Positions 39,001 to 45,000 of a DNA stretch of 64,000 bases are shown here, piece by piece (positions within the stretch are counted from its first letter, which is position 1; every line of letters starts with the position of its first letter). The stretch spans positions 434,208 to 498,207 of the forward strand of contig CAVYVF010000002.1 of the NCBI GenBank assembly GCA_963771885.1. The letters are read 5' to 3'. This stretch comes from Candidatus Bathyarchaeota archaeon (GTDB taxonomy: Archaea > Thermoproteota > Bathyarchaeia > TCS64). The position numbers were made by a program.

Positions 39001-42000
39001 GATGCGGAGCTAAGGAGCCTGGGATTCAAAACGGACTAGATTATGGGGAAGGACCACCGCAGAACGTCCTTGACAGACTTGTTCACGTAGTCCCCGCACC
39101 TCTGGGCGATATTCGTCGCGGTGATCACACCGTAGATGACGCCCTGCTTGACGACCGGTACTCTCTTGATCCCCTTTGCCTGCATAAGCTCGGACGCCTT
39201 CAACAAGTCTTCGTCGGGGTCGATGGTAATCAGGGGTGTGGACGCGATCTGTTTTAATTCCACTCTCTTGGGGTCCTTCTCGGCGGCAAGGATCTTTGTG
39301 ACGAGGTCAAGCTCTGTGACTATGCCGTAGGGTTTGCCCTTTTCCAGCACGATGACGTAGCCCTTATTCTTGGCTACTAGTAGCTTCGCTGCGTCGACAA
39401 CCGACGCCTCGATTTCCAGAGTCGGGAACTCCTTGTCCATGTAGTCCTTTACATAGTATGACATTGTCTCTTGTTCTAGGTAGAAGCCGGCGTATTTATA
39501 GTAAAGTTAGTGTGGCGCCGGGGATGGGATTTGAACCCATGTGAGCAAGCTCACGGACTTAGCAGGCCCGCTCCCTACCAGGCTAGGAGACCCCAGCGCG
39601 CGTCCCCCGTCGGGGTACGCTTTCATAGCAACTCAGCCAGCCATTTTAAGGCTTTCCCAGAACGGGGCGGCTATTTTTTCAACGTGGCGTCGGGCTGGGG
39701 TTTGAGCCTCTTGACGCTGCCCCTGCCGCCGACGTAAGCGAGGTGGGCGTAGCCGAGGAACATCCCGGTCTCGATGACTCCGGGGATAGCGTGGAGCTCG
39801 CGGTTCAACCACCAGGGGTCGGCTATCGGGCCGAAGTCTGCGTCGATTATGTAGTTGCCGTTGTCGGTGACGAGGGGGCCGAGCTTACCCGAGCTAAGTC
39901 TCAGGCTCACCTTCGCGCCTAGCTTTTCAACTCCCTTAAGGGCAGGTGTGACTCCGAAGGGGTGAATCTCTATCGGTACAACCTTGCCGTTGCCGAGGAC
40001 GTCGGTGAGTTTGGAGTCGTCGGCGATGAGTATGTACTCCTTGCACGCGGCGGCGACAATCTTCTCTCTCATCAGGGCGCCGCCTCCACCCTTTATCGCG
40101 TTGAGCTTCACGTCGAGCTGGTCTGCGCCGTCTATGCCGAGATCGAGCTGCGGGTGCTCATCGAGCGATGTGAGTGGTATCTTCGCTTTTATTGCCTCGA
40201 AGGCGGTTTGGATGCTCGTTGGTACGCAAAGGATATCGTATAACTCATCGGTGGCGATCAGCTCCCCTATGTATTTTATGGCGAAGGAGACGGTCGTCCC
40301 GCTCCCGAGCCCGAGCACCATGCCGTTCTCGATGTGCTTGACGGCCCTCATGGCTGCCTTCTTCTTCGATGCAGAGCCAGCGCTCAAGTTTAGTTCTCCA
40401 GTTCGAGCTTATCGAGCTCGTCTAGCTCCTTCATTACCTCTTTCTTAAGCTGTTCGAGTCTGCTCTCAACGTCGCCCTTAGCGGGCTGCTTCTCCTCGCC
40501 CTCCGCCTCGAGAGACTCCTCCTGCTCCTCCTCACCCTCCTCCGTCTTTGCCTTCGGCGCGACGACGCGCCTCTTCTTCGCGGCGGCGGGCACCTTGGGG
40601 CGCTCCTCCTCCACCGGCTTCGAGGGCTCCTCAATCTTCAGTTCTTTAATTATAAGGTCGATGCGGCTCTGCGTCTGCCCCATGCTCTCCTCGAACTTCT
40701 TCACGATCTCCTCGCGTATCGACTCGAGTTCGGCGAGGCTGACGAGCATCTCGCTCCTCTTTAGATCGTCGGCGATCTGTTGTCATCTCGTCCTCGTAGA
40801 CCTTGCCGAGTCGTACACGTTCCTCTCGGCTGATCTCGCCCTCGTCCTCAGCCTCGAAGAGGCGGCGGAGGACCATGCTGTTGATCTCTTGCTTTAATGT
40901 GAGGGTCCTGATCTGGCTCTTCGCCCTCTCGACGTCGCCGCTGGCGATCTTCTTGTCGATCGGCGGGACCTTGACCTTCCTCTCCGTCATTTGCAACTCG
41001 ACTCGAAGCGGGTCCTGCTCCTTCGGGGGATCCTCGGAGGGCTTCTCTTCCTCCTTCTTCTTTGTGCCGCCCGAGGCGCGCCAGAACATGAAGATGGCCA
41101 CAGCCGCGACGGCAACGATGACAACTCCGAGAATTAGATCAGTTGAGAGGAGATCGCCCATTTCCTTCACCTACTGCAATATTTGACTAATATATTTAAG
41201 CCTGAACCCGGATCCGCTGTTTTTGTCTCTGGAAACGAGGATTAGGCGATGTTTTTCACTACGTTTCCTGAAACATGGTTTTCGTCGTCCCGATTGTATA
41301 TGAGGGGTTGACCATACTTCTCCACATTTTCCTCCAACGCCGTCTCCAGGTTCTTTTTTACATGCCTTAGGCTACGCGCACCCATTTTGTAAGATTTATA
41401 TGCGGAGGGGGGTGTGGCTATGGACAGAGGGGAGCTGGGTTAAGGCCCGGCTGAGAGGACGGTAATCGTCGACCCTAGGAACCTGATCCGGGTAATGCCG
41501 GCGTAGGGAGGTGCGCGTTATCGTCAACCTGCCAAGCGGTTGACGCCTGCATCCCCTCTAGGATGCAAAGAGAGATGGAATCAAGGTTCAAGACAACGAG
41601 TGGTAAGTTGGCGCTTTTTGCCATAATGACCGCTGTCACAGTGGTCGCTAATTTAATCATGGTGCCGATGCCGCAGCCGCTGGCGCAGTACGACGCCTCG
41701 CCCGTGCTCATCTACGCCCTCGGCGTCCTGCTTGACCCGCTCATGGCGGGCGCGACCATCGCCGCGGCGATGGGGATAGGTGTTAGCTACAAGATGATTA
41801 CGCTCGGGTTCCCGCCAGTCTTCGTCGTGGGGGCGATGCTAGTGAGGGGAATCGAGGCGATGCTCATCAGCTACCTTGTGCGTATGAGGAAGGGTGAGAA
41901 CCCTAGGACGGTCAGCAGGTGGGAGATCGCCGCTATGTGCGTGGGATGCGTCTGGGAGACCGTCGGCTTCCTAAGTCTCGACTGGGTACTCTTCGGCCCT

Positions 42001-45000
42001 GGGCTGGCGCTGATAGACCTGGCGACGCTAGTCGACCTCATCTTTGTTCCCGTCGCTATCGTCGTCGTTGCCGGGGTGAGGAGCAGGCTAGGAATTTATA
42101 GGCTAACCTAGGAGTAATGAGGGAAAGCTGATGAGCGGCGTCCTGGGGCTCGGAAAAGTCTCGCGGGAAGTCTTCGAGAGGAGTGTTCTTCCGTACATTC
42201 CACTCGATAGGGAACTTGAGCTCGATGGGGCGACAGTGAGTCTCACCGATAAAACAGTTATCGCCCACAGCCCCAGCATCGGTGTGCCTCTTGAGGCACT
42301 GGGCTTCTTCGCCTTCCACTATGCGGCTAGCAATGTTGCCTGCAGATTCGGCGTTCCAACACACATGATAGCCGGCATCTACCTCCCCCTGAAAACGAGG
42401 GAGAGTGACCTCAAGATAATCGCTAAAAGTTTAGGCGACGAGGCGAGGAAGTACGGCGTAGTAATAGTGGCAGGCCAGACAGCCACATACTATGGGCTGG
42501 AGATACCCTTCGTCTCGACAACGTGCCTCGGCGAGCAGAAGCGGAAACCTTCGAAGCTCTGCGTAGGGGACATAGTCCTCCTCGTCGGCGAAGTTGGGGG
42601 GGAGGCGGTCTGGATAACGGGCCTCAGCAGGGGGGCGGAAGACGACAGGTGGAGGGATTTCACTGCGCTTCCGAAGATACGCGCCATATCCGACGTCGAG
42701 GGGGTGAAGTTACTCCACGACGTGTCCGAGGGGGGAGTCAAAGGCGCTCTAGGCGAAGTCCTCAGAAGCTTTGGGTTGGGACTCAGTTTCGACTCCTCAA
42801 GCCTCGCCTACGTGAAGGGGGCGCAGAAGCTCGAGCAGGACCTCCTCAGGGCACCGACCTATGGTACACTCATCGCTATTGTTGACCCGTCTTCACGTTG
42901 ACGAAGTGAAGAAAAGGTGCGGGGTGATAGGCGCCCACGTCAGCATTCTCGGCGCCCTACTGGAGAAAGAGGGGCTAACGGTCGATGGCGCAAGAGTTGA
43001 GGAGCAGGCACGCATAGAAATTGACGAACTCTACGGTAGTTTCAGGAAGCTCGACGAGCTCGAGGAGGCGGTGAGTCTCGCTCTCGGCGAGATCGAGGGA
43101 CTCAAGGGAGCCGAACGTCTCATCCCCCAAGTGGGATTGAATCTCGTCTATTCGAAGACCGATCCGATGGGTCCCCTTGACGTTGTAGGCTTGAACGGCC
43201 GCGTCGTCGTTAGCAAGGGCAGACCAAAAGCGTGCGGCGAAGTCGAGTATGGGGGCTCGCGCTTCATGGCCTCCGTCGTCATCGAGGCGCAGAGGAGGGA
43301 CGCGAGGCTCCGCACCGCTGTCGTCATAAGAGGAGGAGAAGACGTGGCGGATGCTCTCAGACAGATAGGAAAAACGGTGATCAGCCTACCGCCCGAGACA
43401 CTCGGGGAGGGCTGCCCCGTCACGCGCTTCATCCTCTCCGGCGGCAAAATGGCGGACGCCTACAGCCACCCGGGGGCATTAGGTATCGAGCCGACGACCA
43501 CTATACTGGATGAGTCCCCGGAAAAGCTCGTCGCCACACTGCGAGAGTTGCTGAAGCATGTCTGAAGCTGTAGACGCCTTCGATAGGGTGGCGTTTAGCT
43601 ACGACACCTGGTACGAGACAGAGAAGGGGAGGCAGGTGCTCTCAGCCGAGAGGAGGATTGTGGCCGGGTTTCTTCCCAATGAGGGCATCGGGTTAGAGAT
43701 TGGCGCGGGTACCGGCGTTTTCGCCGAGGCCCTCACCAACTCTATGAGGTGCGTTGTATGTCTCGATCTTTCAACCAAGATGCTCACAAGAGCAGCGGGC
43801 AGGGGGTTACCATGCGTCCTCGGTAGCGCCGAGGCTATGCCCCTTAGAGGATGAGTCACTCGGCTTTGCCTACATGGTCACTGTCATAGAGTTTCTAGAA
43901 GACCCTGTCGCCTCCCTGAGGGAGGCATCGCGTGTAACGATTCAGAACGCGCCGATTGTGACACTGTTCATCAACAGGGAGAGCGACTGGGGAGAACTCT
44001 ACACCGCTATGACGGAGAAGGGAGACCCCGTCTTCAGCCACGCCCATCTCTACACGCTCGATGAGGTTGAGGAGATCGCCCGTAGGGCGGGTTTGAAACG
44101 CGGTGGAGCGCTCGGCACACTCACCGAGAGCCCCACCTCCCCTGATGCGGGCGACGAGTTGATCGTACCAAGCAGGGAGACTGGCGTCATCGCCGTCAAG
44201 CTCGCGAAAAACCCCGCCTAGCAAGGAGTTAGGTAAGTTTTATTAGCCCGCCCAAGCCCATACGAGGCGAAGGGGAGCTGGGCGAAAGCCCGGCTGAGAG
44301 GACGAAAGTCGTCGACCCTAGGAACCTGATCCGGGTAATACCGGCGAAGGGATGTGTCATGAGCGGTAACGGTACAAGGACGAATACCAGGGAACTGGCA
44401 GAGATATCCGTAACCGTGGCACTATCCGTTGTCCTAAACTACATAAAGATCTACCAGCTCCCGTGGGGTGGCTCCATCACCCTAGGAAGCATGGTACCGA
44501 TCATGCTGCTCGCCTACAGGCGCGGGCCGAAAGTCGGGATCATGGCTGGGATAGTCTTCGGCCTGGTCCAGATGGCTCTGGAGGGGTACATCTACTACCC
44601 TGTCCAGATCATCCTCGACTACCCGCTTGCCTTCGCGTGTCTGGGACTCGCGGGCCTATTCAAGAAGCAGCCCCTTATCGGCGTCGTGGTCGCGTTGACC
44701 GGCCGATTCCTCTCACACTTCATTAGTGGTGTCGTATTCTTCGCAGAGTATGCCCCACCTGATTTAGGACCGTATGTTTACAGCGCGATATACAATGGCA
44801 GCTACATACTCGGGGAGATGGTGATCAGCGGCATCATCATCTACCTGTTATGGAAACGGGCGCCACAGTTGTTTAATGTTTAGCCAGTAACAACTCTACT
44901 TTTTTTCTTTTATTGACCTAGATGCTAGGATGCACCCTGTTGCCTATGTCCATTATACCCTGTATCCAGTAGAGGTAGCTGTTGACGGCGGCGCGCAGCG

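Follow-up and report, generated by a model that had tools for sequence, protein, structure and literature searches.

A two-part TPP-riboswitch regulon with an AIRS-like/ThiN' fusion in a bathyarchaeon: a possible thiamine kinase acting before ThiL

HypE acts on a cysteine-bound group, and we know of no enzyme of the AIRS/PurM superfamily that phosphorylates an alcohol. For ThiL, an excerpt of PMC6416309 describes a GDD loop that touches the nucleotide and several metal ions that bridge the phosphates, and an excerpt of PMC5037267 describes YkoE of B. subtilis as a thiamine-binding protein. The window analyzed here, a stretch of 64,000 nucleotides from a bathyarchaeal genome, contains two TPP riboswitches and the genes listed in Table 1, among them one for an AIRS-like protein joined to a ThiN-family domain. 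We tentatively read the AIRS-like domain as a thiamine kinase that feeds ThiL within a two-part TPP-riboswitch thiamine-salvage regulon, at a probability of about 0.37. A fused enzyme phosphorylating imported thiamine is more likely than a replacement for ThiD, the role put forward in the survey's finding.

Table 1. Features of the thiamine regulon, in positions of the window
Feature	Position	Strand	Basis
TPP riboswitch 1	41418..41527	+	RF00059 65.3 bits; 5' of the operon with the ECF-S-like, AIRS-ThiN' and methyltransferase genes
ECF-S-component-like membrane protein, 182 aa, unnamed family	41563..42111	+	PF12822 26.7 bits
AIRS-like / ThiN' fusion, 477 aa in relatives	42131..43565	+	here two frames, 42131-42901 and 42861-43565
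Single extra base (C) interrupting the fusion gene	42896..42896	+	comparison with L024 and run contigs
ThiN' domain, divergent ThiN subfamily	43068..43565	+	alignment with ThiDN and ThiR
Class-I SAM-dependent methyltransferase, ~220 aa in relatives	43558..44221	+	frames 43558-43854 and 43754-44221; PF08241 matches both halves
Single extra base (A) interrupting the methyltransferase gene	43851..43851	+	comparison with L024 and run contigs
TPP riboswitch 2	44261..44370	+	RF00059 66.4 bits; 5' of ThiT, 3' end over the ThiT start codon at 44359
ThiT, thiamine-specific ECF S component	44359..44883	+	TIGR02357 158.1 bits; PF09515 174 bits

Both riboswitches span the full RF00059 model (positions 1-105) in an Rfam search of the window and exceed its gathering score of 54.3 bits, confirming the survey's finding that they precede an operon and ThiT. 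The first is likewise placed 5' of the ECF-S-like gene in five further loci (L031, L041, L042, L095 and L101). In the second, the 3' strand of P1 stops immediately 5' of the AUG in the cmscan alignment, and an overlap of this type with the ThiT start recurs in L032, L034, L038, L045 and L059. The gene behind it is indeed ThiT, well above the TIGR02357 cut-off of 108.45 bits. Open reading frames and domain matches also bear out the order described for the first operon, with an ECF-S-like membrane protein followed by the AIRS protein and ThiN. This operon is, however, fuller than that description, as the methyltransferase gene downstream of the fusion belongs to it too; its start overlaps the stop of the fusion gene. 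The membrane protein falls below the PF12822 cut-off of 30.7 bits, finds no match in searches of NCBIfam and of PDB sequences, and aligns weakly in hhalign with ThiW (probability 57) and ThiT (probability 14). Its orthologues lie immediately 5' of the AIRS-ThiN' fusion in 26 loci, and an EcfT gene is found in the same genome.

The single-base insertions in the fusion and methyltransferase genes most likely represent assembly errors. Neither L024, whose DNA is 96% identical, nor any contig of runs X1, X2 and X4 that covers the site has the extra C, in agreement with the earlier suspicion that a frameshift cuts the AIRS gene short and makes it overlap the ThiN gene. L024 and the contigs of X1, X3 and X4 that cover the site are likewise without the extra A, and the intact methyltransferase orthologue (L024:4908-5570) scores 53.3 bits for PF08241. 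The first frame of the fusion gene carries the AIRS and AIRS_C domains, with matches spanning residues 45-254, and the second carries ThiN (PF10120, 110.5 bits); P0121, 98% identical to the window's fusion, is an uninterrupted protein of 477 aa. Fusion in relatives, as already reported, is seen in 117 proteins of at least 449 aa with both domains on one chain, next to 209 AIRS-like relatives of 140-448 aa. This fusion to a ThiN-family domain, together with TPP-riboswitch control of the fused operon, ties the AIRS-like protein to thiamine.

An AlphaFold model of the fusion protein (mean pLDDT 90.7) finds its closest folds in HypE (TM 0.77) and ThiL (TM 0.73) by Foldseek. The C-domain motif HDVSEGG is retained. 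Compared with ThiL and HypE of the same genome, the N domain displays four replacements of acidic residues (DD to DG, TD to TV, SD/ND to SN, and GDT to GQT or GHT), and hence the protein may bind ATP in another way, or may fail to bind it. Fused and stand-alone forms intermingle in a phylogeny of 47 AIRS domains, whose well-supported branches need at least six changes of architecture. Taken with the genomes that encode a stand-alone form and no ThiN, this points to an AIRS-like gene that is independent of ThiN'.

The ThiN' domain itself is remodeled. In an alignment of 9 ThiDN, 11 ThiR and 18 ThiN' sequences, ThiN' retains the Arg of GR, one Ser, one His and one Glu, and harbors an additional invariant Cys in 'GxGCP'. 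It is devoid of the DR, EP, WG and K of ThiDN and ThiR, and F/Y replaces the His of 'GASxH', which is invariant in both. Judged from these residues, we propose that ThiN' is no standard thiamine-phosphate synthase; the loss of D-R, K and His would be compatible with a ligand without phosphate. As residues invariant in ThiDN enzymes are absent, any need of the fused ThiN' for HMP-PP is doubtful.

The genome (92.2% complete, 6.7% contaminated) encodes a canonical ThiL at C23:499754-500710 (223 bits). Searches of it returned no match for ThiC or TPK, just three matches of at most 17 bits for ThiD, 13.5 bits for ThiE, a sole match of 26.7 bits within a 510-aa frame for ThiM, and just short N-terminal matches of at most 33 bits for Thi4, so that the reported absence of ThiD, ThiC, ThiE and true ThiM beside a ThiL elsewhere stands. 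TPK (PF04263) is missing from all 79 genomes of the order and from the five Thermofilales genomes with the fusion, thus from 84 of 84 examined. With Thi4 in one and true ThiM in two to three of the 79 genomes, a source of thiazole phosphate is missing order-wide. A 185-aa P-loop protein with the Walker A motif 'GDVGxGKT', here X185, is encoded between ThiW and ThiC/ThiDN; of the 37 genomes bearing ThiD (ThiDN), 36 have it, the lone exception being the sole Thi4 genome.

The AIRS-like protein occurs in 56 of the 79 genomes. ThiL is found in 49 of these; its absence from the other seven is in line with genome incompleteness, as estimated from completeness figures, and two apparent losses are fragmented genes. 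ThiT accompanies the AIRS-like gene in 48 of 56 genomes, versus 7 of the 23 without it. Eight AIRS-like genomes are without ThiT, and the seven ThiT genomes without the gene include G016 and G025 (94-95% complete). ThiL is kept, with no known source of thiamine monophosphate (ThMP), in G065, G031 and G053, three genomes from which the AIRS-like gene is absent. At stand-alone loci, the next gene downstream is a riboswitch-controlled ThiT, ThiW or ThiC in 13 of 16 cases, and no TPP riboswitch lies upstream of the AIRS-like gene in any of the 16. Sitting 5' of the riboswitch, the stand-alone gene is outside its control. Its adjacency to ThiT falls within a conserved synteny block of one order (RpiA upstream, RNase PH downstream), whose related genomes are non-independent observations.

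Of the 21 genomes with a stand-alone form, 12 have neither ThiN, ThiE, ThiD nor X185. ThiL is retained in every one of these 12 and ThiT in 11; in the twelfth, the closed genome G011, a riboswitch-controlled permease of the ThiW family adjoins the AIRS-like gene. Four of these minimal genomes contain exactly one TPP riboswitch each, 5' of the permease. With no synthase, and with ThiL and a permease kept, the sole unfilled step from uptake to ThiL is the conversion of thiamine to ThMP. TPP switches off both halves of the regulon via the two riboswitches, the second governing ThiT and with it thiamine import, and the first governing the ECF-S-like permease, the fusion and the methyltransferase. 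In the reading we propose, the AIRS-like domain would convert intact thiamine to ThMP at the expense of ATP, the step performed elsewhere by TPK or ThiK, and canonical ThiL would carry ThMP on to TPP. The fold, as near to ThiL as to HypE, the retained HDVSEGG motif and the co-occurrence with ThiT would suit this role. A thiamine kinase as such leaves ThiN' and the methyltransferase without a role, which speaks against it, as do the replaced acidic residues, the lack of any known alcohol-phosphorylating enzyme in the AIRS/PurM superfamily, the stand-alone gene's position outside riboswitch control, and the genomes in which ThiT and the AIRS-like gene occur one without the other; ThiN' and the methyltransferase probably bind or process a compound related to thiamine, with the ECF-S-like protein as its importer.

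It is less likely, though worth serious weight, that the AIRS-like domain is no simple kinase. With ThiN' and the methyltransferase it might perform other chemistry on an imported thiamine-related compound, or it might serve as a subunit for ligand binding or regulation whose ATP site has degenerated, as hinted at by the replaced acidic residues of the nucleotide/metal site, the remodeled ThiN' pocket with its invariant Cys, and HypE, with its Cys-bound group, as nearest structure. Of 39 methyltransferase loci, 30 have ThiN' immediately 5' of the methyltransferase gene and three more have it at most 1.1 kb away, so that the pair is kept in 33. Moreover, four fused ThiD-less genomes are without ThiT, and two of them (G003 and G019) also without X185, ThiW and ThiC; as the module and ThiL are the only thiamine genes detected there, the module may have to supply thiamine alone. 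However, the stand-alone gene persists without ThiN' and methyltransferase in 12 genomes, and G013 has the ThiN'-methyltransferase pair without the AIRS-like gene, indicating that each part can function by itself. A working active site is also suggested by the strong conservation of the HDVSEGG and GxT motifs.

A second ThiL acting on ThMP, or a pyrophosphokinase making TPP straight from thiamine, is improbable. The likeness to ThiL in sequence and fold would suit either, as would the lack of TPK in every genome examined, and a ThiN-type domain that binds its product ThMP would make the fusion a union of consecutive steps. Still, ThiL is retained alongside the AIRS-like protein, in all 12 minimal genomes included. 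A second ThiL would leave the step from thiamine to ThMP unfilled, and a pyrophosphokinase should render ThiL dispensable in the synthase-less genomes, where it is never lost.

We are more doubtful about a hydroxyethylthiazole kinase, a ThiM analogue providing thiazole phosphate for ThiN. It would answer the order-wide lack of a thiazole-phosphate source, and its chemistry would be identical to that of a thiamine kinase, at the same hydroxyethyl group; the genus-mates G070 and G073, with ThiM-ThiE, have no AIRS-like gene, which adjoins ThiW in L025, L026, L053 and L102. However, where the gene adjoins ThiW, a riboswitch separates the two and leaves the AIRS-like gene outside the operon, X185 is the better candidate for a thiazole kinase, and the 12 synthase-less genomes would have no use for the product.

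Least of all do the data favor the survey's own proposal of a non-orthologous HMP/HMP-P kinase that stands in for ThiD and gives HMP-PP to the fused ThiN. The fusion parallels ThiD-ThiN, a ThiL-type conversion of phosphate to diphosphate would fit HMP-P to HMP-PP, the genome is without ThiD, and ThiD is found in 21 of the 56 genomes that have the AIRS-like gene, proportionally fewer than the 16 of 23 without it. Those 21 genomes nevertheless hold ThiDN, 12 of them together with the fusion and four at the same locus (~3 kb apart on one contig in G050, G058, G051 and G043), and L025 and L026 combine the AIRS-like gene with ThiW, X185 and ThiDN. Among the 20 fused ThiD-less genomes, ThiC, the maker of HMP-P, occurs in just one, and 16 are also without ThiW, X185, ThiM and Thi4, so that a ThiD substitute alone would leave the pathway incomplete for want of thiazole phosphate. 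With no use for HMP-PP expected in the 12 stand-alone genomes that have neither ThiN nor ThiE, and with the ThiDN-invariant residues lost from ThiN', a ThiD replacement is very improbable.

Among known systems, ThiL shares with the AIRS-like protein the pathway, the two-domain fold (E 1e-19 versus A. baumannii ThiL) and a similar C-domain motif, D-x-S-[DE]-G. In contrast, the AIRS-like protein reaches 33-40 bits for TIGR01379 (cut-off 184), has the four N-domain acidic residues replaced, and would use an alcohol rather than a phosphate as acceptor. True ThiL co-occurs with it in nearly all genomes and is found in 68 of the 79 of the order, in accord with the earlier view that it is no canonical ThiL. 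HypE, the name given by public sources, is the best match in sequence (E. coli HypE 2i6r, 56.7 bits) and fold, but we reject this identity, as the survey did: scores of 41-52 bits fall far short of the 251.6 cut-off, the gene context is thiamine and not hydrogenase, and stand-alone forms, which have no C-terminal Cys, terminate in a short tail behind YGSF, whereas the true HypE elsewhere in the genome ends in PRVC. ThiDN likewise places a kinase-like domain N-terminal to a ThiN-family domain and shares genomes, at times a locus, with the fusion. Its N-terminal fold is unrelated (ribokinase-like versus AIRS), and its ThiN domain, like that of ThiR, scores 180-229 bits for PF10120, versus 107-150 for ThiN', which differs in the residues described above and is invariably followed by the methyltransferase. 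ThiK and TPK would have in common with the AIRS-like protein the reaction suggested here, in which salvaged thiamine is phosphorylated downstream of an importer, without relation in sequence or fold. ECF thiamine uptake (ThiT, YkoEDC, ThiW) has the same design of riboswitch and S component, with ThiT here a clear equivalog; in Thermofilales, the fusion and methyltransferase genes are divergent to a YkoE/YkoD/YkoC transporter whose YkoE homologue matches PDB 5edl at 74.5 bits. What sets the present regulon apart is a first S-component-like protein of no named family and an operon that adds two soluble putative enzymes.

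Both TPP riboswitches of the window are complete aptamers scoring above the gathering threshold of the Rfam covariance model, and the first begins an operon whose reading frame for an ECF-S-like membrane protein starts 36 nt further 3'. The genes that follow encode an AIRS-like protein, a divergent ThiN-family domain (ThiN') and a methyltransferase, the last of which the survey's finding had overlooked. Orthologous riboswitch positions occur at 20 related loci. At five of the loci with fused or ECF-S-like genes (L031, L041, L042, L095 and L101) the riboswitch lies 5' of the ECF-S-like gene, and at L060 the link runs via ThiT. 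For the leader 3' of riboswitch 1, the predicted fold does not outperform shuffled sequence (z = -1.31); we propose no expression platform for it.

Coordinates of the features discussed. Bare numbers are window positions; C2 without a genome handle is the contig of the window; L and G denote loci and genomes of relatives, and C a contig.
Feature	Location	Strand	Evidence or remark
TPP riboswitch 1 (RF00059)	41418-41527	+	65.3 bits (gathering score 54.3); model positions 1-105
TPP riboswitch 2 (RF00059)	44261-44370	+	66.4 bits (gathering score 54.3); model positions 1-105
ECF-S-like membrane protein, 182 aa	downstream of riboswitch 1	+	PF12822 26.7 bits (cut-off 30.7)
AIRS and AIRS_C ORF	42131-42901	+	PF00586 37.3 bits, PF02769 29.2 bits, both above cut-offs
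ThiN ORF	downstream of AIRS ORF, overlapping it in another frame	+	PF10120 110.5 bits (cut-off 25); domain is the C-terminal two-thirds
Class-I SAM methyltransferase, two overlapping half-ORFs	43558-43854, 43754-44221	+	PF08241 28.6 and 23.5 bits, above gathering score
ThiT	start codon overlapped by riboswitch 2	+	TIGR02357 158.1 bits (cut-off 108.45)
PurM	31686-32843 (C2:465893-467050)	-	
tRNA gene	11103-11175		
tRNA gene	39516-39597	-	
tRNA gene	61818-61892		
True HypE, outside window	C2:231857-232883		C-terminus PRVC; broken into two frames
Further AIRS-superfamily paralogue, 340 aa, outside window	C2:264706-265728		HypE model 147 bits and ThiL model 109 bits, neither reaching its cut-off; N-terminal GKVSHDILRRCVLP is similar to the start of AIRS-like family members
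Third TPP riboswitch	L041:3393-3503		just 3' of methyltransferase gene
P-loop protein X185, 185 aa	L025:1835-2392; L053:2644-3201; G050:C10:21799-22335		also in 40 other genomes
ThiR-type proteins (HTH + ThiN, ~320-360 aa), order TCS64	L053:7548-8576; G008:C41; G013:C2; G043:C151; others		
NUDIX hydrolase, Thermofilales	L076:10179-10706		follows methyltransferase; YkoE/YkoD/YkoC transporter divergent to the fusion
ThiW, X185, ThiC	G021:C1:912898-915226		single-contig genome

The AIRS and ThiN frames of the window correspond to a single protein in close relatives. The nearest database protein (P0121, 98% identity) is an unbroken AIRS-ThiN protein of 477 aa with the sequence DPSSVDEVKK; the corresponding stretch of the window is DPSSR and a stop, with reading resumed in the next frame. 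Aligned with the DNA of the related contig L024, in which the genes are unbroken (3536 of 3701 bases identical), the window carries an extra C at 42896 and an extra A at 43851, the other two gaps being intergenic. Neither extra base is present in contigs of four independent metagenome runs (X1-X4, 90-99% alike) where the sites are covered, namely in X1, X2 and X4 at 42896 and in X1, X3 and X4 at 43851. These comparisons are with related strains, as any one public run shared at most 0.43 of the words sampled. We read the two insertions as probable assembly indels, with strain-specific decay as a possible alternative; together with the split HypE gene of the same genome they suggest an indel-prone assembly. 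The intact orthologue of the methyltransferase reaches 53.3 bits with PF08241. The ECF-S-like protein matched no named S-component family and nothing in a PDB sequence search, and its family aligned only weakly with ThiT and ThiW by hhalign; the genome does encode an EcfT (119 bits).

Relatives of the AIRS-like protein fall into two size classes: 209 of 140-448 aa (most of them ~305-330 aa among the best 120 listed) and 117 of at least 449 aa, every one of which carries ThiN. Their source names are 'hydrogenase maturation factor' and 'AIR synthase-related', and the ESM Atlas returned generic AIRS clusters only for the AIRS-like protein. A scan of species-representative genomes gave 73 loci, of which 58 are archaeal; nearly all of these 58 are from Bathyarchaeia, with a few from Thermofilales and Thermoproteales. 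AIRS proteins of Lachnospiraceae (L080-L094, ~26% identity) have neighbours with no link to thiamine (VanW, AsnC, aminotransferase, SpoU) and were set aside as probably ordinary AIRS-family enzymes.

Four gene layouts are seen at these loci. The first comprises the ECF-S-like gene, the AIRS-ThiN' fusion and a methyltransferase of ~220 aa whose start overlaps the stop of the fusion, often with ThiT further on. In the second, a stand-alone AIRS-like gene is followed directly by ThiT. In the other two, an AIRS-like gene precedes ThiW, X185 and ThiDN (L025, L026, L053) or ThiC and ThiT (L037). A riboswitch is present at 13 of 16 stand-alone loci, always downstream of the AIRS-like gene and before ThiT, ThiW or ThiC. 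None of the 16 has one upstream of the AIRS-like gene (the upstream flank being shorter than 210 nt in 3 of them), indicating that the stand-alone gene is not TPP-controlled. No TPP riboswitch was found at the Thermofilales locus L076. ThiR-type proteins also occur in this riboswitch-bearing order, so that TCS64 seems to combine TPP riboswitches with protein-based regulation of its thiamine genes.

The tightest partner of ThiN' is the methyltransferase. Of the 39 methyltransferase loci whose upstream flank was long enough, 30 have ThiN' as the immediately preceding gene and another 3 have it upstream within 1.1 kb, and the pair is kept where ThiN' is not fused to an AIRS-like gene (L095-L097, L099, L100). 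Translational coupling of this ~220-aa class-I SAM methyltransferase to ThiN', AIRS-fused or not, was seen in both Bathyarchaeia and Thermofilales. A predicted complex of the two proteins scored 0.00, a value that carries no weight either way on binding.

Both domains and a PurM-like fold place the N-terminal part of the fusion in the AIRS/PurM superfamily. In Foldseek searches with the structure model of the fusion (pLDDT 90.7), this part came closest to HypE (TM 0.77) and ThiL (TM 0.73), with SelD and PurM next and E values between 1e-22 and 1e-15, and the best PDB sequence match was E. coli HypE at 56.7 bits. The family models of both enzymes reject it. With TIGR02124 (HypE) the window fragment and the full-length protein P0001 score 41.4 and 51.8 bits against a cut-off of 251.6, and with TIGR01379 (ThiL) the scores are 33.1 and 39.5 bits against 184.15, while the genome's real ThiL reaches 223 bits. 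The C-terminal Cys of HypE bears the carbamoyl/cyano group; stand-alone AIRS-like forms end without a Cys, and a true HypE fragment ending in PRVC is encoded elsewhere in the genome. In a tree of 47 AIRS domains, fused and stand-alone forms are interleaved with at least 6 changes between them, indicating that they are orthologous and that the function of the domain is independent of ThiN'.

Alignment of the family with ThiL, HypE, PurM and the further paralogue of the same genome offers a closer look at the active site. The 'HDVSEGG' motif is retained, whereas the acidic nucleotide and metal residues (DD, TD, SD/ND and GDT in ThiL and HypE) are replaced by DG, TV, SN and GQT/GHT. For ThiL, one study (PMC6416309) describes a GDD loop that touches the nucleotide and several metals that bridge the phosphates of ATP and ThMP. 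Fewer acidic ligands could mean fewer metals, as expected with an uncharged acceptor. They could also reflect a site that no longer binds ATP, and here lies the chief weak point of every reading as a kinase.

Gene content was compared across the 79 genomes of order TCS64; since these genomes are related and the MAGs among them incomplete, the counts are taken as patterns and not as statistics. Of these genomes, 56 carry the AIRS-like gene, as a fusion in 32, as a stand-alone gene in 21 and in partial form in 3. ThiT accompanies it in 48 of the 56, compared with 7 of the 23 genomes that lack it. ThiL is widespread in fused (28/32), stand-alone (19/21) and AIRS-less (19/23) genomes alike; its loss from genomes with the AIRS-like gene is probably apparent only, 2 of 5 high-quality cases being fragmented genes and the remainder, by our estimate, in line with genome incompleteness. 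No TPK was detected in any of the 79 genomes or in 5 Thermofilales genomes bearing the fusion. The most reduced pattern is found in 12 stand-alone genomes without ThiN, ThiE, ThiD, X185 and ThiC, all of which keep ThiL and 11 of which keep ThiT. In the twelfth, a closed genome (G011), a riboswitch-controlled ThiW-family permease adjoins the AIRS-like gene. Exactly one TPP riboswitch each was found in 4 of these 12.

The genome of the window itself (92.2% complete) was searched in six frames. As the survey had reported, ThiD, ThiC and ThiE are not found above cut-off, the ThiM-like signal is confined to a 510-aa frame and the Thi4 signal to dinucleotide-binding N-termini, while a canonical ThiL and a single ThiN copy are present. 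A genome search likewise detected no TPK. The interpretation that the AIRS-like protein is a stand-in for ThiD fares less well. The protein has no match to the ribokinase-like family PF08543, although only functional analogy had been claimed. ThiD, always as ThiDN, occurs in 12 of 32 fused, 6 of 21 stand-alone and 16 of 23 AIRS-less genomes, a negative association that is weak but genuine and does not amount to exclusion. The AIRS-like protein stands alongside ThiDN in 21 genomes, within ~3 kb in 4 of them, and a precursor kinase would be useless in the 12 genomes without any thiamine-phosphate synthase. Moreover, 16 of 20 fused ThiD-less genomes, including the present one, are without a source of thiazole phosphate, whether known or candidate, so that a substitute for ThiD would still leave them without a working pathway.

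An alternative role for the AIRS-like protein is that of a thiazole kinase. Thi4 (only in G007) and ThiM (true copies in G070 and G073, the only genomes with ThiE, and a fragment in G009) are almost wholly absent from the order, yet ThiDN is present in 37 genomes, which points to a missing source of thiazole phosphate. The gap is fitted better by X185 than by the AIRS-like protein. X185 is encoded between ThiW and ThiC or ThiDN and occurs in 36 of the 37 ThiD genomes, the sole exception being the only genome with Thi4. Among aligned copies from ThiD-less genomes, Walker A is lost in G053 and G054, partial in G037 and G045 and kept in G021. The protein combines a Walker A motif (GDVGxGKT) and a Walker-B-like motif (LFINDVS) in a small RecA/P-loop domain (model pLDDT 92.6); among fold matches of comparable size, CobU, thymidine kinase and CobA come nearest (TM 0.47-0.54). 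Its PDB sequence matches, PPR only, are spurious, and the ESM Atlas places it in 'hypothetical protein' clusters with weak NTPase_1 leads. We regard X185 as a candidate non-orthologous hydroxyethylthiazole kinase, a separate yield of this analysis. G021 pairs X185 with ThiW and ThiC; ThiD, ThiN, ThiT and the AIRS-like gene were not detectable in this genome, and its thiamine pathway appears incomplete.

The ThiN' domain differs from its ThiDN and ThiR counterparts in ways that touch its annotation. We aligned 18 ThiN' sequences with 9 from ThiDN and 11 from ThiR-type proteins. ThiN' retains the Arg of 'GR' (89% of sequences), the Ser of 'GxS', a His (H446 in P0121) and a Glu. The His of 'GASxH', invariant in 9/9 ThiDN and 11/11 ThiR sequences, is Phe or Tyr in ThiN'. 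The catalytic Arg and His of Pyrobaculum ThiDN are reportedly R320 and H341, and the 21 columns that separate the 'GR' Arg from the 'GASxH' His presumably correspond to this pair. The window ThiN belongs to PF10120 by score but does not combine the catalytic Arg and His. The D-R, E-P and W-G motifs and a Lys, all conserved in both ThiDN and ThiR, are also missing, an invariant Cys in 'GxGCP' has been gained, and PF10120 scores are lower (107-150 bits, against 180-229 bits for ThiDN and ThiR). Because of these losses and lower scores, the label thiamine-phosphate synthase is unsafe for ThiN'. Loss of basic residues common to enzymes and sensors would suit a phosphate-free ligand.

Taken over all genomes, the AIRS-like protein is best explained as a putative thiamine kinase (EC 2.7.1.89), a reading to which we give a probability of about 0.37. 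ThiT would import thiamine, the AIRS-like protein would convert it to ThMP, and ThiL would act on the product. The conversion of thiamine to ThMP is the step lacking in every genome, and the minimal genomes require it between ThiT and ThiL; among conserved proteins with a link to thiamine, the AIRS-like protein alone is a candidate for it. The context consists of the co-occurrence with ThiT, the absence of TPK and, at one Thermofilales locus, the position of the module beside YkoEDC; B. subtilis YkoE, an S component, binds thiamine (PMC5037267). The broader claim, that the protein acts either on thiamine itself or on ThMP, is about evenly balanced.

Four fused ThiD-less genomes lack ThiT, which suggests that the module is able to supply thiamine alone. 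We hypothesize, as an improbable extension, that a whole thiamine-salvage pathway not described before is made up of the ECF-S-like protein, the fusion and the methyltransferase. The imported compound would be related to thiamine but distinct from thiamine, HMP and thiazole, and would be rebuilt by a Cys-dependent ThiN-like transferase and SAM methylation. The product would be phosphorylated by an AIRS-fold kinase acting on an alcohol, which would also be the missing archaeal thiamine kinase.

Many thiamine-importing archaea, and all 79 genomes of this order, have no recognisable enzyme for the first phosphorylation. The AIRS-fold protein described here is conserved and has ties to ThiT, ThiL and a TPP riboswitch. 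Annotations as 'ThiN' conceal a divergent subfamily that is probably not thiamine-phosphate synthase, and genome-based calls of B1 prototrophy or auxotrophy in these sediment archaea are therefore likely wrong. Searches of the available literature returned no link of AIRS to ThiN or ThiT, no archaeal thiamine kinase and no TPP riboswitches in Bathyarchaeota. What is new here stays within known kinds, namely AIRS-superfamily proteins, ThiN-family domains and TPP-controlled regulons.
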